This document shows, in pieces, positions 6,645-64,000 of a stretch of 64,000 bases of DNA (its first letter is position 1; every line of letters starts with the position of its first letter). Below the pieces are notes generated by a model that saw only the letters and a list, made by a program, of their open reading frames with translations, ran no database searches and had not been told where the DNA came from. The stretch is from Macrostomum hystrix (lineage: Eukaryota > Animalia > Platyhelminthes): positions 14,136,001-14,200,000 of the forward strand of contig CATNEN010000001.1 in the NCBI GenBank assembly GCA_950097015.1. The letters are read 5' to 3'. Both the position numbers and the translations under genes were made by a program.

Positions 6645-8883
6645 TCAGTGCCTAATGCAGCTGCGGGCATTCATGAGTTCATCTCGAGCCCAGATGAACC
6701 CACGAATCCGACTGCCTTTTGCAAACTGGGGATTCGGCAACACAGCGACTTCACTCACCAGTGCAGGGAACTCATCGCTCTGGCCCGCGAAGACGAACGG
6801 CTTCTGTCCTCCGGCCATCCAGCTCGAGATTGACTGGGTGCAAGCAGAGACGATGACTTGGTTGTCACCCAGGAGATGAATAACTCGACTCGGGTAATGC
6901 TGCCAGGAGTCCACACGTCCTCTGCACGTTGTCCGCACGGCGGCCAGCACCCAGCAGTTGAGGCTCGATTCCGGTAGAGGCAGCGGCAATAGCGGCATGT
7001 AATGCACCTCCGGGATGTGCGCCAGCTTGATCGGCTGAACACCTTGCATGCACCCATCCGGCAGGACCTCGGTTGGACAAGTGCTTTCAGGCTGGTAGAT
7101 GTGAATCGGCCTGCTAAGAAAATATGCTAATGCAACGATTATTGGGTGATCGGCATATGTGCTGGGAAGCCTCATTTTTGTTAAGTAAGTTTCAAGCGGC
7201 TTATCGAGAAAATTAACAATACTCTCACCATTGGATGCGAGTACTAGGCCATGCTTCTCCAAGTAGTCCCAGGTGTCCAGCCGAAGCTGGACTGCATCAG
7301 CTTCAGTGCCCTCAGACCGCAGAATCTGCTGAATTGAGTCAAAAAAGCAATTGCCGAATGAATCAGCATTACCAATTAAGCAATTTAGTGACTTCGCCTT
7401 CGCATCAAGCATGCGAAGTGCATCGTCAATACTGAGCGCGGCTGGGGTAGAAGCGGCTGCAGGCTGCTGCTCTGCGGCACTCGCGACTCGCATGGGCACT
7501 CGCCGTGGAACCGGAATCGGCTTCCTCTTTTGCAGCCGAGCAGCTTGCCGGGCACTCTTCACGTTTAGGGCAGCTTGACGCTTCTGCGCTCTGGCTCTGA
7601 AAAAGGCTAGAGTGGAGCGGCTTGTCAAGTTAGGATGTGGTATGTCCTGGTAGACGGATGTTTTCCTTCTTTTAGTAGGAATTGCAGGAGCCTGGCCATG
7701 CCGCTTCGTTGGAAACGCGATTTCCTGAGCAGTTGCCTCGGCAGCCGCTGACACGGATGACTCCGGGCAGAATGCACCTGCTGGAAAACCGGAAATGATA
7801 CAATATATTTCATTGCGAAATGGCCAACGAGGCATTCAAAATTTAATGAATAGATTCTTTCGTCTTTATTTGACTTAAGGTTAGTGCATTAAGCCGTAAG
7901 CAAAAAGGCTCATAAACCCCAAGGCTCAAACCCCAAGGCTCATAAACCCCAAGGCTCAATAAGACCAAATTGCTGAAAAAACCCGATAAATCAATAGAAT
8001 CAACTGACAGTTCATTTGATCGGTGAATGCACTTCACAACTTGAGAGTGAGTCAAATGAGTAAATAAAAAATATCATAATTTTATAATTTCTTACCTGGC
8101 TGCTCCTCGTCACTTAATGCCGCATTGACCGCCGGAATTGTTTCCTGTTCTTCATCCGCTGGCATTGGACTGCTCTCAACCAGGTTGCTGCAACTGTCTG
8201 AGCTCTGCGGGTCAGAGGAGGGGTCCCCTTCAGAGCTGACGTGCTCGTCATTAGGCTGCTCGCAGCATAAATTTCCAGTCAGTCGGAACAGCAGCTGCTG
8301 CAGTGTGCGATCTGCATCAGTCTGAGCCGGCTCGGTCTGCAGCCGTTCAAGGTAAGCAGCCCCCAGAACTTCCTCGAAGCAGCGCTCAACAGAGCCGGCG
8401 ACCGTCCAGCACTTTCTTAAAATCTTAAACATTTTCGCTTCTGGCTGGCTAGATTGGCTCCCGCCGATGCCGCAGGCAACGTCCTGGATCACGGGTACAG
8501 GTGCAGGGTCCTGGCGCTTGCAGAGCTTGTCGTAGGCCAGAGCATCCGGATTCCGCGGATAGATGCGGATGCATAGATGCATCACCTCTTCCTGAAGCCA
8601 GCGCTGATGTTCTTAGGAGTCGCCCGCTCCATCAGGAACTCCCGCAGCATGCTGACGAAGCTCAATCTGCTGATCATGCTGCCAAATGCCACTTTCCGAG
8701 ACCGGTCCGCCAGAAGCTCTCGCCAGCCAGCTTTCAACGAACGAAAGATCAAGCGGCTGAAGGACATGCGTGGCATTCGGAACTAGGCCGTAGAGCATGA
8801 CCTTCTGTTGCCGCAGGTAGTCAATAACCTCTAGGGAGAATCTAGAGTCATGCAGATCTGTGAAAAGGACAACTGGGCGACGG
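6645..8883 (-). pseudogene. 5'-truncated, frameshifted pogo/Tigger-like DDE_1 transposase spliced to an OTU-like cysteine protease domain
   Basis: PVVLFTDLHDSR…VPNATHVLQPLDLSF / FRSLKAGW…NISAGFRK / IYPRNPDAL are DDE_1 motifs spread over three frames. Intron 8095-7781 (G|gtaag…ttccag|CA) is in phase with ORF 6645-7835, which has OTU motifs ADSFGNCFFDSI, TYADHPIIVALA and EVHYMPL. Confidence 0.8.
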
Positions 8884-15200: not shown

Positions 15201-15413
15201 TGTATAGAAATGATGCCCAAGTGCAGGTCTGCAATCTCCACAGACTGTAGTTACATGACCACAATACTTGTGGGAATATATGTGGAATATAAGTGCTATG
15301 ATTTCATTGTAGAATATATAAAACTTTATAGTAATAAATAGAAAACAGTTGTCTGTCTACAATATTAAATACTGTGGAGCAATGCTTATAAATTACTTTC
15401 TCATTTCCAGACA

Positions 15414-17872
15414 ATGTATCGCGGCATCGAACTGAAGCGTGTTGTCAAAGCTTCACTGCAAACTGGCTGTCGTGGGCGACCCAGAAAGATTAAGACAATC
15501 ATTAGCGGCCGAAATCGAGGCTCAACATCTCGGCATCCTGTGTCCGAAACTACTCCTGTTCTAGTGGAAGCTAGCACCGAGAATGATGTCGGTATGCCTG
15601 AGTCTTTTGCTCCTACAGTAGAAGATGTTGAATGGATAGATTTTGACAGCTTTGCTGAGAAATACAGCGGTAGTTACGAGAAGCATTTTCTCTTAAATCT
15701 GTGTTCCTCTTGCTATGAGCACGAAGGTGTATATCGATGTGTTACTTGTCGACTTAGCTTATGTGCCAGCTGTAAGAATGAGACGCATAAAAAGTTTTCA
15801 GCCCACAAGTTTCTCATATGGAATAAGGAGAGTCTAATGTTTCAGGAACTGGATGCTACTTACGATGCTTTTGAAATGTTTTGCTGCGCTTCTAGTAAAT
15901 TGAATCTAAATGTCTGTGCGGCTACAAAAGTTGACCTTATAGATCTGGCTGGAAGCGTAAAGGTCATTTTTATTACCTGCGACTCCTGTGATCTTATTGG
16001 TGCACTCCTTTCCCAGGGGTTCTTCCCTTGTTGGGAAGGGTCAAAGCCTGATTCAGATGGGTATGCATTCTTTTCTTTTACCTTTTTGTCCCTGCTAGAC
16101 AGTTTGTGTATGACTGGGCAGTTGCCTGTTCACAGAGCGGTCAGTACACTGCTCATTGGGCCAACTCTGGGACAAGGTACATATAATTTGGCTCTTGTAA
16201 AAAGCACTTATCAACGCATTCAACGACATGATGTTTTGCTGCGGTTTCGCCACCTGCAAATGGCCTCAGCAAAATGGCCAAATAATTGTCTTCTCTGTGC
16301 AGATAATCACGCTGTGCGCAAAACTGTTGTCTGTGCAGATGCTCTATTTGGTTGGCAGCGCTTTAAAGCCAGGGGGCGTACACAACTGGAAATACCATCA
16401 GATGGTCGTCCATTACCTACGCCGCTTGTCTATGTAGATATTACAGCGGATGTGCCAAAAAATCGAGCAGAGGAACAGAATTGTCCTAATTGGAAGGCCG
16501 GTGCTCATGAACCATTAAGTCGTGAGCAGAGACATGATGTCACGGGTTTCTTTGGGTTATTCTGTCGTCACAATCGCCTTTTGTGTGGCTCAAATATCAC
16601 AACTGGTGGTGAAAAGTTTTGCTACCTGGAACAGTGCCTTGAACACTTTCTGCGAAACGTCAAAGTGTCTAAGGAATTACTTGTCGTATATGACGTGGGT
16701 AAGTTTATTATTATTTTATAAAATGCATACAATCTATGAAATACTGTTGCTTGTGTACAGTTATATGACAACATGACTTACTCTTTATCCCAATTCACAG
16801 GCTGTCGCGTATCCAGCCGGGTAACTTCCGCTATTGCGAAGTCTGGTGCCAACATTCAAGCGAGTAGCTGTGCAATAAACGCTTTTCATGCTCTTGGTCA
16901 CCTGCCCGGTTGTCAAAAAAAGTTTTCTGTTCGCGTTACTCCAGGCGCAGGTCTATGCGATGGAGAGAATACTGAGCGAGCCTGGTCTCAACTCAGGCCG
17001 TTCGGTAAGTTTTTAAAGTACATGCGAAAAGACCGACGAGCGCAATACATGGCGCATATTCTATACTTCTTTAATGCACAACAGGTTCTTAGCGCTTCTG
17101 GGTGGTTTACACAACGTATTTACGGTATTAAGCTTTTTATGGTAGGTGCGAGAAAAAGCATTCTAAGTGAGCTAAAAGAGCTACAAAGCCAGTCTGCGAT
17201 TTTGCAGCACTCGGGGGTCCTAAATGACAGTCTGGTCATTTCTGAGGATGAAATTTTGGATTTAGCCTCCCAATGGTATGAAGATTCCCTCCGAGTAGCT
17301 ACTCGGACGCTGTACACAACTCGGAAGATGATATCCTATGTGAGCTACGCGGTCTTGCAGTGCACAGAGATCATTGGAGTAAATAGGTTGGTAAGTCGGT
17401 TGGCCAAAGTCAAACCAGAATGTGCTTGCGAAAGGTTAAAAGTTATGCATCCGACATGAAGAAACTCTACGCTCGTCTTCCAATTGAAGACAGAGCTTCT
17501 TTCGATGAATATAAAAAGCCGCGTAGTGCGAAATATGAACATTTGTCTGGAACCAACCTTTCCATCCGATTTAGTCAGCGGGCTATAGACGTCAGTAACA
17601 AGTATAAACGGCTAAGAGAAGAAGCGCATATTATTTCAGATGAGTGGGTTGACCTTAAGGTTAATTTGCAGAGCCTCTGTGATGACTTAGCGAATCAGCC
17701 GGGCTTAGCCGCTCAATTTCGGGATTTGTTTAAAAGACTGCTTGAAGTTGTTTCAAGTAAAAGCGTGACTGATGCTGTAAAATATCTTCTTGCGAATAAG
17801 TTCTCCCTAAGCACACTGAGTCAGAGCGCTAATGCTTCAGAAGATTGCTTCAGAAAATTCGGGGTCTTCTGA
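15414..17872 (+). pseudogene. KDZ (Kyakuja-Dileera-Zisupton) transposase with N-terminal AT-hook and CxC cysteine cluster; intron ~16700-16800; C-terminal part disrupted
   Basis: RGRPRK; CSSC…YRCVTCRLSLCASC…H…H; GFFP; VCADALF; TGFFGLFCRH; GGEKFCY; VYDVG|C; INAFHALGHLPGCQ; GAGLCDGENTERAWSQL are KDZ core motifs. The downstream region needs a frameshift near 17290 and has an in-frame TAG at 17384-17386. Confidence 0.85.
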
Positions 17873-19540: not shown

Positions 19541-21179
19541 CTAGGCGTGCCATTCTTGAAAGCAGCCTTCCAGGCACAGACCAGGCGCACCTGGGCACTC
19601 CGGGCAGCAGTAGATTGTACGCTTGCTGCTTCCAGCTCGATAGCAGACGCGGCACCGCTTCGTAGGTCTCGGTTGACTCTCGCGAGCCGTTATTTTTGTT
19701 GGAAAGTGCGGGCCGATCAGACCGATTGCCTGGACTGCCAGAGTTACAGCAGCCGGTCGCTTTCTACTCCCTCCAGTGCACTGCACCAATTCGCGAATGC
19801 TGGCCTCCAGAAACTTGGAAAAAACCTTCCGCCCGCCACACCGACAGTACACAATCCAAGCATTCCGAACCATTTGCAGGAACAGGTGCAGACCAAGCTT
19901 CAGAAACCACTTCGTGGTTTTTCTGCCAGGTTGATGAGGCTGCATGTGACCATCCATTCGGTCAACGCCGCCCATGCATCGGTTGTAGGTCAATGCAGAT
20001 CTGCACTTCTGCACGATGGCTTCTCCTCCACCACGGATGATGCGTCTGACTGGCACTCTGGAAGCCGCCTCCTTCGTATCCAGTAGGTACAGAGTCTTCA
20101 GGCCGCTCTCTTTTCTCTCTACTATTTTAGCTACAAGCACGGAGCCGTTGCGCATGAAGCCAACATCATTCGGTGGCACATTCGACTGTCTGAGTTCAAT
20201 CGGCACACCACGATCGGACCGGATAGTGCAGGTCAGATTAGTTCCTCGAGTCAGCAAGTACTCAGCGAGCCGATAAGAGCCAAACCACTTGTCAACAAAT
20301 ACGCGATAGCCTTTATGCAGGAGATCTCGGCACAGCTCCACGACAATCTTCTCACTAAAAGACAGGTGGCTTTCTTGTAGATCTTCGTCGAACCTGCGAT
20401 TCTCCACCGGGGTTGAGTGGACGCGAAAGTTGTAAAGATACCCCGTCTCGGCTTCACAGGCGCAGTACAGCTTGATGCCGTACTTGGCGCGCTTCGTTGG
20501 GATATACTGCTTGAAGCGCAGGCGCCCCTTGTACAGCACCAGTGACTCGTCGATGCTTATATCCTCCTCCGGCATGTAGACATTCATGCACAGCTGTCTA
20601 AAGATGTCCAGCAAAGGACGGATCTTAAACAACGGATCGCCCGGAGCCGGACCCTGAGCGCAATCGTAAAAGCGAAGCAGACCGAGCAGCTGCTTGAAGC
20701 GATCCCTGAAAGAATGGAGTCGAATAGTAGCTGTCAATGCACCAGTACTGGTTCATCTCGGCCTTCTTGTTGCTGCCCATGTAGAGGTACATCCCGATTA
20801 CCTTCTTTACTTCATTCTTGCTACAATCGATCCATTTCTGATAACTCACAGGGAGGTCCTCAGCAGGCGTTGAATGGATTACGACCTCGGCTCTTCGGTT
20901 AGTCCATTTAGCTAAATTGTCAAACAAAGCGTTGGGTAGAAAGAGGCCAAGAAAAAATGAAGTGGATTGCTGAACATTAACGGGAACTTCGATTCCAGGA
21001 TTAAGGCCAGGTGTGACAAGAAACTCTGTTTCACTATCAGAAACGTCAATCTCAGCGATAGCAGGACGCCATGGCATCTCGTCGGTCGCTTCTTCATCAC
21101 CTGTCTCCATGACATCAGACGCCTCATCCAAGACAATCAATTCCTCATCATCCGACGTCATTAGCTCGTCAATTTGCAT
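19541..21179 (-). pseudogene. piggyBac (PGBD4-like) transposase with one frameshift near 20710
   Basis: YWCIDSYYSTPFF / RDRFKQLL junction in different frames. Catalytic SIDESLV, VFVDKWF and MGGVDRMD; KRAKYGIKLY; C-terminal Cys-rich CRVC…CPECPGAPGLCLEGCFQEWH. Candidate 5' end …GATCGGAAGAGG|TTAA at ~21614-21618. Confidence 0.93.
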
Positions 21180-28601: not shown

Positions 28602-29210
28602 TGATGTGGAGTGTGCTGCGGGAATCGAGTGGGAATGTGAGCCAGCAGAATTTTTCAATTTTTAGGCAGTAAATAATCGCGACCCACATAGCAGCTGGCC
28701 GCAAAACAAGATCATTAATCTTAGGGCCGGGTTTGGGGCGGCGGTGAATTGAGTAGCCGACGAATCCCCTCTCCCTGGATCTGTTTTAGCCCCTGTAGGA
28801 ATGATTGATCGCGGGCCATAGCTTTATTGTATGAGCTAGTTTAGGTCATAATTCCTCTCCAAACCGCGATCAGATGTTGGGAATCACTCGGGCATTATGA
28901 GTGATCATTAATTCTTCATGTCCCCACTTCTTTACAGTATTCGAGCCCAGCTCGACTTTATGACCTTCCTCCTTTTAGATACATGTAATGTCACTGTAGG
29001 CAGGTCGGCGCCTGCGCTTCCCATTGTCCCGGCGGAGTAAAAATTGCTGGCCGACTGCCGACGGCTGTTCGCGCAGAACACCTGTCGTTTCCCGCCGCCG
29101 GTTCATTGGATGATCAGGGCGGCCTATCGCCGCCCCGATCCCTCGTTGACAGGCTGGCACGAATGTGGGTTGCTTTGATGAATGTCGAGGTTGGCGTGCT
29201 GCAGGACTAT
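28602..29210 (+). mobile_element. Truncated, diverged copy of the LTR of the element at 56815
   Basis: Begins TGATGTGGAGTGTGCTGCGGGAATCGAGTGGGA and aligns with 56815-~57422 with scattered substitutions. Confidence 0.9.
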
Positions 29211-29423
29211 TCACAGAAGCAATTACCATTCCATGGATAACAGTGATCAGTGGCTAAGATCCCACTGCGAAGGTTCGGGCACAGCAGGGCCCGGTTTAAA
29301 ATCGTTTGAAGCGCGCATCGATCGCCCTCAGTGAGGTGAGACATCAGAAGCAGCAACTCACGGCTATTTTTACACCTGCTTTATTCTTTTACTTGCACAG
29401 TCACGTCTTGCATGTTATCACGA

Positions 29424-56814: not shown

Positions 56815-57422
56815 TGATGTGGAGTGTGCTGCGGGAATCGAGTGGGAGTGTGAGCCAGCATAATTTTTCAAATTTTTAAGTGTCTAATAATTGCGACCCA
56901 CATAGCAGCTGGCCGCAAACACGATCATTAATCTTAGGGCCGGGTTTGGGGCGGCGGTGAATTAAGTAGCCGTCGAATCCCTTCTCCCTGGATCTGTCTA
57001 GACCCCTGTAGGAATGACTGATCGCGGCCATAGCTTTTATTGTATGAGTAGTTTAGGTCATAATTCTCCTCCAAACCGCGATCAGATATAGGGGATCACT
57101 CGGGCGTTATGAGTGATCATTAATTCTTCATGTCCCCTCTTCTTTACAGTATTCGAGCCCAGCTCGACTTTATGACCTCCCTCCTTTAGATACATGTAAA
57201 TGTCACTGTAGGCAGGTCGGCGCCTGCGCTTCCCATTGTCCCGGCGGAGTAACAATCGCTGGCTGACTGCCGACGGCTGTTCGCGCAGAACATCTGTCGT
57301 TTCCCGCCGCCGGTTCATTGGGCAATTGGGGCGGCAATCGCCGCTTCAATTCCTCGATGACAGGCTGGCGCGAATGTGGGTTGCTTTGATGGATGTCGGG
57401 GTTGGCGTGCTGCAAGGCCTAT
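56815..57422 (+). repeat. 5' LTR (minimum extent; true 3' end and PBS not resolved)
   Basis: Matches 63502-64000 (few substitutions, one ~13-bp indel) and 28602-29210. TATA-like TATTTAA at ~57420. Confidence 0.85.
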
Positions 57423-58146
57423 TTAAGCAAGCGCGCTGCGCTGCTCCCTAGAGGACCTCTTTTCTCCCACCGGCTCTTCCCCTTCTCCCTGCCGGTTTAC
57501 TTTTGCCGGGCCGGACTCCCACCGGACCCAGAGCACCTTTCCGGACCCACTTAGGGCCTAGACCCTAGAGCTCATAGCTCCACAGTTAGCGCGGGCCCAT
57601 TGCCTGCCCCCATTCCCCCTGAGCGCGAGCCACCTCTTTAGGTGAGCCGTTAAATTGAGCCTTGAGCTCCAAGCGTGTGGGCCCCTTTGGGGATCGGGGA
57701 TTAGCCTTCTTTGAGTAACTTATTGAAGTCGTGTACTTTCCAAGGTAGGGCGATAGGCTGCTGCAGGCGCTGCCAGCAGTAGTACTGGCCCCGCCGTACC
57801 TATAGTGTAACAGTTCGCTATGGGGTTGCTGAATGAGTGCTGGTTAAAACCTAGACTCCTATGTCCCAAGTTCGAGTGCGCGCAAGCAGTTGTCGGAAGC
57901 CAAGGCCGAAGGTAGAGCTAGCCAGGGCCCCGGGCCCTTTTTCTCCCCTATCAGTTTTCCCTTATCGCTTTATCGGCCGCTGCATCGCAGTCTTTGTTCA
58001 CGAGGGCCGGTTTATCAATTGCTCATTCTCCGCGGCCACTGCCGTGTGCAGCACCCCGCTTAGCCCACTTTTTCTCATCCCCAGTGTTGCTTTAGCGACT
58101 AACCCCCTCTTAATTCGCAAAATCCTCATTTCCTCTTTTGGTCGAC

Positions 58147-59220
58147 ATGTCCGACCAGGAGGATGAGGTGGTGGAGGCCGTTGGCAATGCCCGCCCACCC
58201 AGAGGCCGCGCTGCAGCAGCAGCGCGAGCCGAACCCCCAGCAACTGCGGCAGCCCAGCCGGAAGACCCAGTGGAGCGCCTAGCCTCCCTGATGGAGCGTT
58301 TAGAGCCGCGACGGGCTAGGACCCACCGAGTAAAAATTGCTCTAGAGCCGTTCGAGTCGGCGAAGGACTCATTTCCCCGCTGGCTGCGCCGGTTTAATTT
58401 GAAGGTCGAGGCCGAGGGTCTGGAGACGGATGAGGAGAAAATCCTCACTCTCCTGGCCCACCTAGGAGGCGAACCCTTGACCCAGGCCATGAGCCTACCG
58501 CGCCGAGTGACCTACCCGCGGTTTGTGCAAGACCTGACCGAGGCCCTCAGCGGCGCCTGCACACCCTATGCCCGGCTCCTTAGCGGGCGAAATCTTAAGC
58601 AGGACAGAGGCGAGTCATACGCCTCGTTCGCTGACCGCCTGCGATCTGTGGCCACCCAGGTCAATCCCAATGGGCGCGGCCCACCTTTTGAACAAGCCCT
58701 CCTGGCCTCCTTCCTAGAAGGTATCACGGCCCCCCCGGAGGTGTTGGCGCCCATGATGCGGATAGAATTCGCCACGGTAGAGGCGGCTGCCGCTGAGCTG
58801 CGCGCCGCCACCCAGGCGTTTGAAATGGCCGCTGAACGCGACCCCCGTCGCCGAGTGCGCCAGGTCCGGGCAGGGCTAGACGAGGCGCAAGAACCCCCCG
58901 GCGAGATTCAGGCAGTCCGCCGTGAGCAGCAGCACTTGGCCCAGGAACTGGCCAAAGTTTCCCAACAGCTCGCGGAAGTCACGCGGCAGCTGCGAGAACC
59001 ACGACCAACCCCGGCCCACCCGCCTTGTCCGCACCCGTCCGGGCACCAGTGGTATCTCAGGGTAGAGAGGGGGCCGCGCAGGAAGTACCGTGGGGGCTCT
59101 GCCGCGGGAAACGGGAGTGGGGCCGCCGACTGGAGGCAGCTCGATTATCCGGAGGCGCCTCAGGCAGCTCGGGCGGTCGAGGCCCCCCCGTTGATGCCGC
59201 CCTCATCGAAGTCCGAGTGA
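58147..59220 (+). CDS. gag: Gag (Ty3/gypsy-like capsid)
   Basis: LEPF…FPRWLRRF, LLAHLGGE, MHR-like LKQDRGESYASFADRLR, FLEGI; coiled coil; degenerate knuckle CPHPSGHQW. Confidence 0.88.
   Translation: MSDQEDEVVEAVGNARPPRGRAAAAARAEPPATAAAQPEDPVERLASLMERLEPRRARTHRVKIALEPFESAKDSFPRWLRRFNLKVEAEGLETDEEKILTLLAHLGGEPLTQAMSLPRRVTYPRFVQDLTEALSGACTPYARLLSGRNLKQDRGESYASFADRLRSVATQVNPNGRGPPFEQALLASFLEGITAPPEVLAPMMRIEFATVEAAAAELRAATQAFEMAAERDPRRRVRQVRAGLDEAQEPPGEIQAVRREQQHLAQELAKVSQQLAEVTRQLREPRPTPAHPPCPHPSGHQWYLRVERGPRRKYRGGSAAGNGSGAADWRQLDYPEAPQAARAVEAPPLMPPSSKSE
59106..59190 (+). promoter_or_regulatory. Programmed -1 ribosomal frameshift signal (G GGA AAC plus downstream GC-rich stem)
   Basis: Heptamer in correct gag phase (GCG GGA AAC). 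GGGGCC…CGAC about 6 nt downstream can pair with GTCG…GGCCCC. The protease ORF is in the -1 frame. Confidence 0.8.
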
Positions 59221-59651
59221 ATTCACTCGGCCGAGTCCCCACCCGAGTGCGCACCCGCCCCAACCGCTCTGAGGAGCTTAGTGAGGTGTGGGTCGCCTTG
59301 GAGTTGGACGGAGCACCCCTTGGCCTCCTGATCGACACTGGGTCAATGGTGAATGTGCTCCCGGGCTCGTTGTCATCCATCATCTCCCATTGTCATTTCG
59401 ACCCCCCTCAATTCTCTTTATTAGCATATAATGGCACCCCTATAATTGCACAGGCGCAAGTCAAGGTCAAGTTACAGGTTGGCGCCGAAGCGTTGGACAC
59501 GCTGTTCTTAGTGGTCGAGGGCGACTGCTCTCCCCTTCTAGGCGCCTCCTGGTTGGCTCATCACCATGCCATCCTTGACTTCGACTCGCGCCCATTAATC
59601 ATTTACAACCAGTCCATTCCCTTCTCGCTCAGGCGGAAGCCTGCATTTTAG
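59112..59651 (+). CDS. Retropepsin-like aspartic protease (Gag-Pro frameshift product)
   Basis: LLIDTGSMVNVLP, LLAYNGTPI, FLVVEG, PLLGASWL; stops at 59651 with no RT following. Confidence 0.9.
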   Translation, partial: REWGRRLEAARLSGGASGSSGGRGPPVDAALIEVRVNSLGRVPTRVRTRPNRSEELSEVWVALELDGAPLGLLIDTGSMVNVLPGSLSSIISHCHFDPPQFSLLAYNGTPIIAQAQVKVKLQVGAEALDTLFLVVEGDCSPLLGASWLAHHHAILDFDSRPLIIYNQSIPFSLRRKPAF

Positions 59652-59797: not shown

Positions 59798-60343
59798 ATG
59801 GCTGGCCTGAGTATAACTGTAGCCTGGTGGCTAGAGGCAGTCGCCACCGACTATCGGCGAGAGTTGGCCGGCAAGAGGACGTGGCTCATGATCCGCCTGT
59901 GGCTACTCCCTGCGTTGGGCCGCGCGGCACAGGCCAGGTGGATGGCGCAGGCATGGGCCGAAGAGCGGGACCCGAGCCCGCCAAAAGGTGAGAACGAGGA
60001 GACCCTGCCTTGGAATCTCCGGTGGCCCGAATACAGCCCGCCAGAAGACTGGGGCATGGCAGTGCCCGAAGCCCTCATGTCCTGGCTACAGGCTACCCGG
60101 ATCCCTGGCAGGTGGGATCTCGAGCACCAGCTGGTAACATCGCGGATTGGCGAAGCCGTCTGGAGGCAATCTTCCGGACTAGCCTCTACGCCATGGAGAA
60201 GCTGGGCGGTAGAGGCATCAACCATCGAGGAGACGCCGCCAGGGGACAGTACGCTCGGCCACATGGTGAGACAGATGGAAGGTGAAGGTGTTAGCGAGGA
60301 TCCAGCAGAAAGTACGCCCATCAAGGAGGAGGCAGAAGAATAA
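59798..60343 (+). CDS. Orphan Trp-rich 181-aa ORF with acidic tail inside the LTR element
   Basis: GC-rich open frame with ATG in good context (GTCATGG), set in AT/pyrimidine-rich flanks. No recognisable domain. Confidence 0.55.
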   Translation: MAGLSITVAWWLEAVATDYRRELAGKRTWLMIRLWLLPALGRAAQARWMAQAWAEERDPSPPKGENEETLPWNLRWPEYSPPEDWGMAVPEALMSWLQATRIPGRWDLEHQLVTSRIGEAVWRQSSGLASTPWRSWAVEASTIEETPPGDSTLGHMVRQMEGEGVSEDPAESTPIKEEAEE

Positions 60344-61511
60344 GGGAACGCAAGGTAGGATCAATTGAGGCGGACCGCAGGACTGTATTAATAGGACCCC
60401 TATCCAATAGGCCCCTGTTCTCTGTCCCCCCCTTGTCCTTTTCCCTTTTTTTCTCCCCGTTAATAACTTTTCGCACCGCGCACTCTTTCTCGTAGTGTTG
60501 TGTTTTCCTTTTTCATTAAAGCCATCTTGGTGCCAAAATTCTGCCTAAAAAATTATTATAATCTAGCCAAAACCACAAAAACATACGTAATGGGGTGAAA
60601 TTCCCCTTGTACGATTTTCGCATGAGATGTTTTCAATAATTGTAGCAAACTAGGAAGTGCACCTTCTTTTCTCAAACATTTAACATTTTTCGCACTGCAT
60701 TATGCATGGCACCCTTCTTTATCCTTTTTGCTTCGGGTGGGTCTGTGGGGTGCATCTCGGGCCGATTTCTATTTTAGGAGGGATACCAACCCGCTAAAGT
60801 GAGCGGGGTGGTATGATGGGCACTCTAAGTTTGGAATGGGGTGGGTGTCTGAACAAGGAACTGTCAGGTTTTTAGCTCAGGTTGAGAGAAGTTTTCTTAT
60901 TGGTTTAGAAGGCAGTGGGTTCAAATGGTGTTTTCCTTTTCTAAGGGAAGTGAGAAATGAATGAGGGGGCACAGTTAAAAGAAAAGGGTTGTTTACGCAG
61001 ATGAGTCAACTAGACTGCGGGCACCTAAGCAAGGCTTTTTGTTGTAAACTTTCGAAATGATTCTATATATCCACCTTACTATTATTGTGGGAACGCACTT
61101 TAGTGGCAGATTTGGAATGATGTCTTGTCCTTTAGAATTTTCTAAGAACGAGTAGCACAATTGTCAGAAAGAGCTCACAAGGAGCATCACGTAAGAAACA
61201 CATCATTCGTTTTCGCACGGGATAAGTGTATTTTATTATAGCAACATTGATAAACAAATAAACAAGAAGGTAGGGCTATGCAAGGAGAGGACGCTCTGGG
61301 GGCCATCTTATCCTCCTGGTCAGTCTAGTACATAAATGCGGTCTGTTACGCGCTTAATATGTACTATGTTAAGTGAGAATGATGTGACATACAGTCTTTA
61401 CGAACACATAGCAGAATAACACGTTCAGGCACCGGACTGGCGCTGCATGGGAGACAGGTGTCATAAGTTCACGGGAATAAAACGTCCTGCTGTGTACTTG
61501 CACTGTATCCA

Positions 61512-62589
61512 CTAGTGTTGGCGGGCCAACCAGAAAACGCCGACGGCTGCCATCAGGCCAGCCGCGAGGGCGAGGCCACCCGGGCCAGTTGCAAAGTTGT
61601 TGATTAGAGTACAAATGGCCGCCTCCTGGCCTGGAGCCACTTCAATATCTGTGGAAGGTGGAATAGGGTTTCGTTTCATTACGAAGTAAGAGTGTCAAAT
61701 GGTGGCCAATTAGGAGTAAGGTGTAGGATCGAGTCACGGCAACTTACTGATGGCGAACACAATGCGCAACGGTGGCTGCGGCACGACATCTCTGGAAGTA
61801 GGAGGGCAGGTATCGTAGTGCTCAACAACAATGATAGCCACTCCACGCAATGGTTAAAATTTAAACTCAATTTAATTCGAACTTAGGTTTTCACTGGAAT
61901 TTCTCAACTTAGCGGGCTGAGGGATCTGGGTTCAGGTTAAGATCAATCATAGATCGGAATCGGGCTGGGGGTGCCGGGAACAGCGATTAATCTAGATCAG
62001 GCCAGCCGCGAGGGCGAGGCCACCCGGGCCAGTTGCAAAGTTGTTGATTAGAGTACAAATGGCCGCCTCCTGGCCTGGAGCCACTTCAATATCTGTGGAA
62101 GGTGGAATAGGGTTTCGTTTCATTACGAAGTAAGAGTGTCAAATGGTGGCCAATTAGGAGTAAGGTGTAGGATCGAGTCACGGCAACTTACTGATGGCGA
62201 ACACAATGCGCAACGGTGGCTGCGGCACGACATCTCTGGAAGTAGGAGGGCAGGTATCGTAGTGCTCAACAACAATGATAGCCACTCCACGCAATGGTTA
62301 AAATTTAAACTCAATTTAATTCGAACTTAGGTTTTCACTGGAATTTCTCAACTTAGCGGGCTGAGGGATCTGGGTTCAGGTTAAGATCAATCATAGATCG
62401 GAATCGGGCTGGGGGTGCCGGGAACAGCGATTAATCTAGATGGCCTAGTTATTATTCAATCATTTTAATCACCCCTCAATAACCGGCCTTGGAAGGCCGA
62501 GTAGAAGCAATAACTCACCTTTCTTCTCCAGGCTGAATCGAGGACTGAGTCTCGCATAATGGCACGAATGGGCGAGTAGCGTTAAGCAT
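61512..62589 (-). CDS. Predicted antisense 3-exon gene inside the LTR element; 83-aa protein with C-terminal hydrophobic anchor (exons 62589-62519, 62235-62192 or 61791-61748, 61648-61512)
   Basis: ACCATG start; AG|gtgagt…cctacttccag|A; A|gtaagt…ttccacag|AT; phases 2 and 1 are consistent. CCAAT at 62732, TATAAAAA at 62694-62687 and AATAAA at 61237-61232 on the minus strand. Confidence 0.62.
61553..62440. repeat. 444-bp tandem duplication, apparently identical copies
   Basis: atcaggccagccgcgagg…gcgattaatctag twice; identical ORFs at 61679/62123 and 61692/62136. Confidence 0.95.
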
Positions 62590-63501
62590 GGTACATGGAT
62601 TAGGGGTAGAAGCTTGGCAGGCGCAGTAAGGGAAGTGTTTAGTGAGTTAACAGGCCTGAAGTTAATGGAGCATCAAGTGGCTATTATTTTTATAACAGTT
62701 TGGTTAGGGGTTTTGGTGGCCGAGGCGCCAGCCAATAGGAAGGCTCGGGAAGGTTGTGGGGAATTCCATGAGTAAGGGGACCATAGCTATAGTTTGGTTA
62801 TTGGGGCCTTGACTTTTTCGGCGAAGAGATACCACAGCCGGCAACAGCGTAACTGGGCGGCCTGAGCAGCGGTTTTCTCCAGCTGCGACCAGCTACAGCG
62901 CCGACTGGACCGCGCGCAACGGCTCGGCAACCGGCCCGGCGAACATTGTCGGGCACGGCCAGCTGTGAAACACCTGGGGCGCGCGGCAAATCAGAGGCTA
63001 CCAATGCCCGGCAGCAGGATCGGTGAGGACGCGAATGGGCCAACCAACCTGGAACCACCTGGTGAGAGCACGGCCGGACCCCTCGGACTCAAGGAAAGAC
63101 GGCCGGAGCCTCCCAGGATTGCGCAACCGAGACCAAGCCGGGCAGGAGAAGATGGGCACAGCTGCAACCACCTGGAGAAGAAGGCGAGCCGGGACAAGGC
63201 ACACCCCTGGGCATCGAGGAACTCTATTCGCCGCGGCTGGAATGCGCACCCACCCCCCATAGGACGCTATACCGCAATCACTAGGGGCGCCGACCATTTT
63301 ATACTCACGCACCAATCTATTTATAGTATCCGTACGTAAGTACGCATTAGGATTTCCTCTCTAGCGGAATTCTTCTTAGGGTTCTGTACCGTATGTTGTA
63401 GGTAATTATTATTTTTTTTATCCCCATTGATTCTCGAGACACCCCGCTACTTCTGTCAGTAGGCACGTAAGTGTCTTACGTGAAAGTGAGCGAAGGTGGA
63501 G

Positions 63502-64000
63502 TGATGTGGAGTGTGCTGCGGGAATCGAGTGGGACTGTGAGCCAACATAATTTTTCAAATTTTTAAGTGTCTAATAATTTGGACCCACATAGCAGCTGGC
63601 CGCAAACACGATCATTAATCTTAGGGCCGGGTTTGGGGCGGCGGTGAATTAAGTAGCCGTCGAATCCCTTCTCCCTGGATCTGTCTAGACCCCTGTAGGA
63701 ATGACTGATCGTGGCCATAGCTTTTATTGTATGAGTAGTTTAGGTCATAATTCTCCTCCAAACCGCGATCAGATATAGGCGTTATGAGTGATCATTAATT
63801 CTTCATGTCCCCTCTTCTTTACAGTATTCGAGCCCAGCTCGACTTTATGACCTCCCTCCTTTAGATACATGTAAATGTCACTGTAGGCAGGTCGGCGCCT
63901 GCGCTTCCCATTGTCCCGGCGGAGTAACAATCGCTGGCTGACTGCCGACGGCTGTTCGCGCAGAACATCTGTCGTTTCCCGCCGCCGGTTCATTGGGCAA
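63502..64000 (+). repeat. 3' LTR (runs off the window)
   Basis: TGATGTGGAGTGTGCTGCGGG…, nearly identical to 56815 onward. Confidence 0.92.

Follow-up and report, generated by a model that had tools for sequence, protein, structure and literature searches.

Antisense accessory genes of LTR retrotransposons have no established function. The closest described systems are the aORF-3R genes, antisense ORFs with their own promoter between pol and the 3' LTR, which include gene23 of maize Grande and those of rice RIRE2, Silene Retand (TRP28) and Boty (excerpts of PMC7264820, PMC11963269 and PMC8365987). Such ORFs are present across the copies of a family according to the excerpts of PMC7264820 and PMC11963269; the word "intron" has no occurrence in the latter excerpt, and the former urges a search for antisense and spliced transcripts. 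Outside plants, brtn has been described in the Boty-like gypsy elements of Botrytis (Zhao 2011, as related in excerpts of PMC8365987 and PMC7264820), and bdelloid LTR elements carry extra membrane ORFs, which the excerpt of PMC5408684 does not describe as antisense. The sORF2/FAST proteins of the MDG1 group are always sense, with a central helix, an ectodomain of ~30 residues, a polybasic tail and often myristoylation (PMC11952523, in part). Additionally, hbz of HTLV-1 is a spliced antisense mRNA, and ASP of HIV-1 is an antisense-encoded membrane protein (PMC10186651, in part).

We compared these systems with a locus in a 64,000-nucleotide window of the genome of the flatworm Macrostomum hystrix, where a putative antisense gene sits on the minus strand between the protease and the 3' LTR of an LTR element, which is the aORF-3R position. 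It resembles the aORF-3R elements in this position, its orientation, its internal promoter (a candidate here) and its lack of an assigned function, and some aORF-3R carriers are also non-autonomous. In contrast, the aORF-3R products described in those excerpts are nuclear or DNA-binding and mostly long, whereas the product here would have 83 aa, three exons and a predicted membrane tail, and belongs to an animal element. As with brtn, an extra antisense gene lies in a gypsy element outside plants, although brtn is fungal and the likeness is one of description only. The resemblance to sORF2/FAST lies in a micro membrane protein (predicted here) within 63-107 aa in an env-less LTR element, and some sORF2 genes are likewise downstream of pol (PMC11952523, in part). 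However, the present gene is on the minus strand, its product starts with M-L without an N-myristoylation motif (which is not universal in the sORF2 family), its helix is at residues 62-80 of 83 rather than central, and its 3-residue tail has no polybasic patch. While hbz and asp are driven from the 3' LTR and overlap sense genes (PMC10186651, in part), the promoter candidate here is internal and no known sense gene is overlapped.

The literature searched, chiefly the main texts of papers available without subscription, contained no spliced membrane microprotein encoded antisense in an animal LTR element. The antisense accessory architecture is already known; what is new is the small size, the predicted tail anchor, the animal host and the fast-changing ends, and the tail anchor is the least secure of these. 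Since microprotein screens translate unspliced ORFs (PMC11952523, in part), a three-exon antisense gene of this kind would escape them. Should the anchor prove general among the copies, it would widen the accessory-protein repertoire of env-less elements and provide a small testable target. Our preferred reading, to which we assign a probability of about 0.6, is that the locus is a three-exon antisense accessory gene of a gypsy-type LTR family with its own TATA promoter, that its small product is predicted to hold a partner at an internal membrane, and that in this copy it has likely been cut short by a perfect duplication.

The host element

The element has the following features on its sense strand.

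56815..57423, plus strand: 5' LTR; right end at least 57325, agreement with a second LTR copy up to 57423
58147..59220, plus strand: gag, 357 aa, gypsy-type, zinc knuckle degenerate
59106..59651, plus strand: in-frame slippery site G GGA AAC, followed in the -1 frame by an aspartic protease that ends at the stop at 59651
59798..60343, plus strand: orphan sense ORF of 181 aa with 14 Trp and without a membrane-like stretch
62857..63145, plus strand: non-coding block, widely shared and differing in relatives by 1-nt indels; candidate for a structured RNA signal
63480..63501, plus strand: candidate polypurine tract (PPT), a purine-rich tract read directly
63502..64000, plus strand: 3' LTR, ending at the window edge

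The LTRs beginning at 56815 and spanning 63502-64000 shared 494 matches over 499 nt, with 5 mismatches and one 12-nt indel (99% identity apart from the indel); because the pair differs so little, the insertion is taken to be young. A primer-binding-site (PBS) search gave a single TGG candidate at ~57366, within the sequence common to the second LTR copy, and the window ends inside the 3' LTR. The second copy (28602-29211, plus strand) is 91% identical, has no interior and is bordered by CTATT on both sides, as a solo or truncated LTR would be.

The 357-aa gag had 15 distant relatives, the best at 29% identity (E 1.5e-15), and 14 of them showed Retrotrans_gag, PNMA, Ty3_capsid or CCHC zinc-knuckle matches; the named members came from a flatworm and a barnacle. 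The gag of the window itself gave no gag Pfam match, and its gypsy link runs through these relatives; a word-indexed protein search with it returned none among 7997 candidates. The protease was weakly recognised, by PF13975 at E 0.0014 (below cutoff) and as a retroviral-like aspartic protease at E 0.004. No RT, RNase H or integrase was found after the protease by ORF and Pfam examination of the element, which is therefore non-autonomous. Judged by its coding content, it is a gypsy-type derivative with gag and protease. The 181-aa orphan ORF had 0 Pfam matches and no Atlas match, and its GC3 was 0.68 versus 0.70 for gag.

Minor features were also present on the sense strand: a strong donor at 59987 inside the orphan ORF, a candidate intron in the gag leader (57642-58084) and a 101-aa upstream ORF (57861-58166) overlapping the gag start. 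A 157-aa plus-strand ORF at 62866 was ruled out as coding by the 1-nt indels in relatives, and it had 0 Pfam matches. An Rfam search gave one match at chance level, and no tRNA was detected; no related loci were found in the metagenome contigs or the viral contigs searched. The surrounding sequence (1-56600) is rich in repeats. It contains a KDZ transposase (15369-17459), a piggyBac-like DDE gene (19541-20752) and two SET-domain copies (30129 and 52721) that neighbour 12-nt arrays, as well as an OTU protease (6645-7835) and a fragment of RNase H (42303).

The antisense gene model and its duplication

The gene model, including the duplication that interrupts it, comprises the following features.

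62732..62736, plus strand: CCAAT box candidate, in plus-strand orientation
62687..62694, minus strand: TATA box candidate; the ATG follows 105 nt later
62519..62589, minus strand: coding part of exon 1, 71 nt, matching relatives in its last ~14 nt only
62236..62518, minus strand: intron 1, 283 nt
62192..62235, minus strand: exon 2 of the first unit, 44 nt
62093..62191, minus strand: intron 2 of the first unit, 99 nt
61992..62092, minus strand: exon 3 of the first unit, broken at the duplication junction, with TAG at 61994-61992 after 32 codons
61748..61791, minus strand: exon 2 of the second unit, 44 nt
61649..61747, minus strand: intron 2 of the second unit, a GT-AG intron of 99 nt; relatives retain both of its splice sites
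61512..61648, minus strand: exon 3 of the second unit, complete with 44 codons, predicted membrane helix and stop
61232..61237, minus strand: AATAAA poly(A) signal, 275 nt past the stop, one of only two such motifs that the 6-kb interior has on this strand
61552..62441, unstranded: perfect tandem duplication, 61552-61997 being equal to 61996-62441 (446 nt, 0 mismatches, period 444)

The sequence-only reading had proposed a minus-strand gene from its signals, and nearly all of these were recovered. The TATA box sequence TATAAAAA is present from 62694, the ATG of the ACCATG start is at 62589 with A at -3, splice signals stand at the donors after 62519 and 61748 and at the acceptors before 62235 and 61648, and both the TAG stop (61514-61512) and the AATAAA (from 61237) are in place. 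The CCAAT motif claimed at 62732 is also present, but it reads as such on the plus strand, the minus strand reading ATTGG. Around the start we observed a weak-context ATG at 62596 (minus), 7 nt upstream of the main ATG, which opens a 4-codon overlapping ORF, and, over the TATA box, a 36-aa sense mini-ORF (62665-62775, plus; hydropathy 2.15) that is not shared with relatives and is likely due to chance. Two further TATAAA motifs at 63325 and 63303 (minus) may mark an upstream antisense promoter, and the best minus-strand acceptor, at 63171, may belong to a non-coding antisense exon.

Splice sites on the minus strand of the element interior were scored with rough matrices. Donor 1 ranked first and donor 2 twelfth among 292 GT sites, and the acceptors ranked 3-4 and 6-7 among 360 AG sites. 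The best three-exon score, 37.1, was reached by one of 300 dinucleotide shuffles; the model with this score uses another last acceptor, and the path proposed earlier sums to ~36.8. As a control, 11 other strand-stretches of the element were scored, two of which came to 33.9 and 35.3. Because these score nearly as well, the sequence alone gives modest support, and the pattern across copies, described below, is stronger evidence than the sequence of this copy. The GC content was 0.51-0.61 in the exons versus 0.44-0.45 in the introns and 3' UTR.

The duplication had been overlooked in the sequence-only reading. Each unit runs from the last part of intron 1 through exon 2 and intron 2 into exon 3, most of which it covers, and the proposed junction 62519/62235 enters the first unit, while junction 61748/61648 belongs to the second. 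Two clean introns with consistent phases, as claimed for this copy, were thus not borne out: the duplication intervenes between junctions from different units, and, read literally, these would give one exon (62235-61748) in which translation ends after 42 aa. A path through both copies of exon 2 shifts the frame. Splicing at the nearest sites gives 71 aa ending at the TAG of the first unit, with a best 19-residue hydropathy of 1.23 and no anchor, and such an anchorless product, whose stop comes early and precedes further introns, would likely be a decay target. The 83-aa form would require this copy to skip one unit, through a 543-nt intron 2 or a 727-nt intron 1 (same exons). The duplication is real. 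In the public run X2, a 474-nt contig with 0 differences goes back 444 nt across the junction, and in run X1 the unit forms one contig with a depth of 202 versus 82 and 87 in the flanks and a loose end at the junction, which together ruled out an assembly artefact. Run X1 is from one study (P1) and may be the source of the window itself; X2, X3 and X5 are from a single other study (P2). The case also shows how an internal duplication can give a first-pass gene model a tidier appearance than the copy has.

The hydrophobic tail proposed earlier held for the unit-skipping 83-aa form but failed for the nearest-site product. In the 83-aa peptide, the best 19-residue hydropathy was 1.93 at residues 62-80, and the tail after it has three residues, one of them Arg. 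Of 750 window frames, 11 reached this value near the stop and 57 anywhere in the frame. AlphaFold2, run on exon 3 alone as a single sequence, placed a helix at exon residues 22-42 (pTM 0.46). An N-terminal signal peptide was not indicated, the 11-residue hydropathy, sampled every 4 residues, never exceeding 0.6 within the first ~25. Tail-anchored proteins are defined by a single hydrophobic helix at the C-terminus, and such an anchor is a prediction here for the unit-skipping form of this copy only. The exon-3 peptide had no homologs by Pfam (0 matches) or by a word-indexed search (none of 1 candidate, the first 16 residues of the query being intron-derived). The best Atlas score was 0.84 for both queries (this peptide and the 181-aa ORF), and these hits serve as leads only. 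A possible likeness of residues 33-57 to the strand-helix starts of ABM-type barrels was dropped.

Diverged relatives and alternative readings

Relatives were represented by contigs from five of seven public runs. None of the seven is on record as RNA, and the contigs compared were DNA-like or of unknown kind; no spliced joint was among the joints listed for them, which in such material has no bearing on expression. The run comparison comprised 193 variant rows, 97 loose ends and 641 pieces, and the features of relatives given here are among those listed. The LTR-to-interior depth was near 1 in X2-X5, which have smaller contig sets, versus ~10 in X1, and X2-X5 may therefore derive from RNA; no argument here draws on this. 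When region 61420-61900 was compared at 80% likeness, there were 15 records, 13 of them listed; among these 13, four were identical to the window and the other nine aligned only at 61627-61671 and/or 61771-61810. Each aligned block consists of one acceptor and ~20 exon bases, and random placement of two such blocks covered both acceptors in 0.99% of 200,000 trials. Donor 2 lay at an equal distance from acceptor 1 in all three loose-end cells reaching it, so exon 2 stays at 44 nt and its phase is kept. The donor 1 motif and phase were kept in one X4 cell, at 62508. The span between the blocks, which holds intron 2, was longer by 54 nt in X3 and X5. A single X1 record had 88 extra nt there, a difference not divisible by 3 and in keeping with an intron.

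Exon 2 itself had changed considerably. In two single-contig cells compared by eye, 9 of 23 and 12 of 25 bases differed without a stop or an indel (the counts leave out a third, two-contig cell). R33, F36 and I38 were kept, five codon changes were silent and eight replacing, and four of the five replacements in one cell were aliphatic to aliphatic. Beyond this core, relatives ceased to match ~14 nt into exon 1 and ~six codons into exon 3, while intron 1 was ~88-90% identical over 62305-62533 (two records, with 23 other letters and 5 gaps). Judged from these alignments, the pattern is not one of uniform purifying selection. Two exon-3 continuations were seen in relatives, neither aligning to the window; both were open for 10 codons (~60% by chance). 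One continuation has charged residues within those codons, and one is hydrophobic. Only 30 nt are visible per continuation and the helix of the window begins 16 codons later; as exon 3 diverges after ~six codons, the membrane tail is unseen outside this copy.

The check that the sequence-only reading had called for, conservation of the splice sites, thus came out in its favor: diverged relatives keep both donors, both acceptors and the length and phase of exon 2. With regard to the family-wide presence known for aORF-3R genes, nine diverged records here keep the splice anchors, and the coding ends are not conserved. The kept splice sites and phase, together with the promoter-like and poly(A) signals, support a spliced gene that the element family carries in antisense, and we consider it probable, from these sequence comparisons, that a coding gene of this kind is real. 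Recent capture of a host gene, also suggested earlier, is disfavoured because the layout is common to diverged copies of the element and the Pfam, word-indexed and Atlas searches with the exon-3 peptide gave no homolog.

The same conservation could be read in other ways. The family may make a spliced antisense RNA with a regulatory job, pairing with genomic RNA or feeding small RNAs, with the peptide incidental; conservation is indeed centred on the splice sites and intron 1 rather than on the coding ends, and the antisense transcripts of micropia are non-coding. The latter also qualifies the Drosophila antisense ORFs invoked earlier as a precedent (PMC7264820, in part). However, at 40-50% base divergence, exon 2 keeps its length, phase, three residues and hydrophobic character (by eye), the ATG has A at -3 and GC is high in the exons, and we regard an RNA-only role as unlikely. 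That there is no antisense gene at all, the conserved blocks being sense-RNA signals (packaging, or the acceptor at 62532) and the model a chance reading, would fit with 62532 being the best of 454 sense acceptors and with control stretches at 33.9 and 35.3 against 37.1. The retention of both minus-strand acceptors and both donors, the fixed exon 2 beside a variable intron span, the block placement (P ~0.01) and the lack of a fold signal in intron 1 (z 0.36) make this account improbable.

Two further alternatives accept the gene and concern its product. The product may be small and soluble, with ends that are swapped or evolve fast, and the hydrophobic tail may be peculiar to this subfamily. 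This would fit the difference between the two exon-3 continuations, their failure to align to the window and the charged residues in one of them; equal hydropathy somewhere in 57 of 750 window frames is consistent with this. Yet the visible 30 nt of each continuation end before the point at which the helix of the window starts, and one is hydrophobic, and we hold this reading to be decidedly unlikely. The earlier suggestion of cell-to-cell transfer corresponds to a sORF2/FAST-like fusogen, for which one may cite the 83 aa (within 63-107), the single membrane helix and the lack of env. It was not supported: all 105 sORF2 candidates are sense (PMC11952523, in part), the peptide has no myristoylation motif and, with its C-terminal helix and short tail lacking a polybasic patch, it fails four of five sORF2/FAST features, leaving a fusogen highly improbable.

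Returning to the antisense accessory gene, we propose the following course of events. The packaged RNA is the plus strand and reads the minus-strand introns backwards; they are therefore not removed and survive reverse transcription. Transcription would start from the promoter candidate, ~105 nt ahead of the ATG, and yield an mRNA of three exons with its end beyond 61237. The conserved middle of the protein (~residues 20-45, proline-rich and then a hydrophobic strand) is probably the binding core of the family, and the last helix, which in this subfamily is rich in Gly and Ala, would insert post-translationally into the ER or an organelle membrane. Whether the inserted helix localises element particles or a host factor at that membrane is doubtful, though we consider it conceivable.

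The mirror of donor 1 is the best sense-strand acceptor of the interior (62532; rank 1 of 454), and the conservation of donor 1 therefore has a second reading. One further feature bears on this acceptor.

63166..63195, plus strand: arm that could pair with the complementary 62510-62540 and may mask the sense-strand acceptor at 62532

Among 1194 sampled windows, 63166-63195 was the best partner of 62510-62540 at -29.5 kcal/mol, the next region reaching -25.2. Speculatively, this duplex could hide the cryptic sense acceptor. An extended scheme would then be an antisense membrane-microprotein cassette in which the splice anchors are fixed while the coding ends diversify or swap faster than their own intron, as in host conflict; the duplex in the genomic RNA would hide the cryptic acceptor created by the antisense donor, so that the gene survives copying, and env-less animal retrotransposons would have a second, independently controlled route to tiny membrane proteins. 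We consider this full scheme rather unlikely. By eye, the contig of one relative seems to extend the complementarity of the two arms. Elsewhere in the interior, the block at 62857-63145 was the most widely shared in the runs; its fold had a z-score of -2.56 (2 of 200 shuffles as good), and it is a candidate packaging or dimerisation signal.
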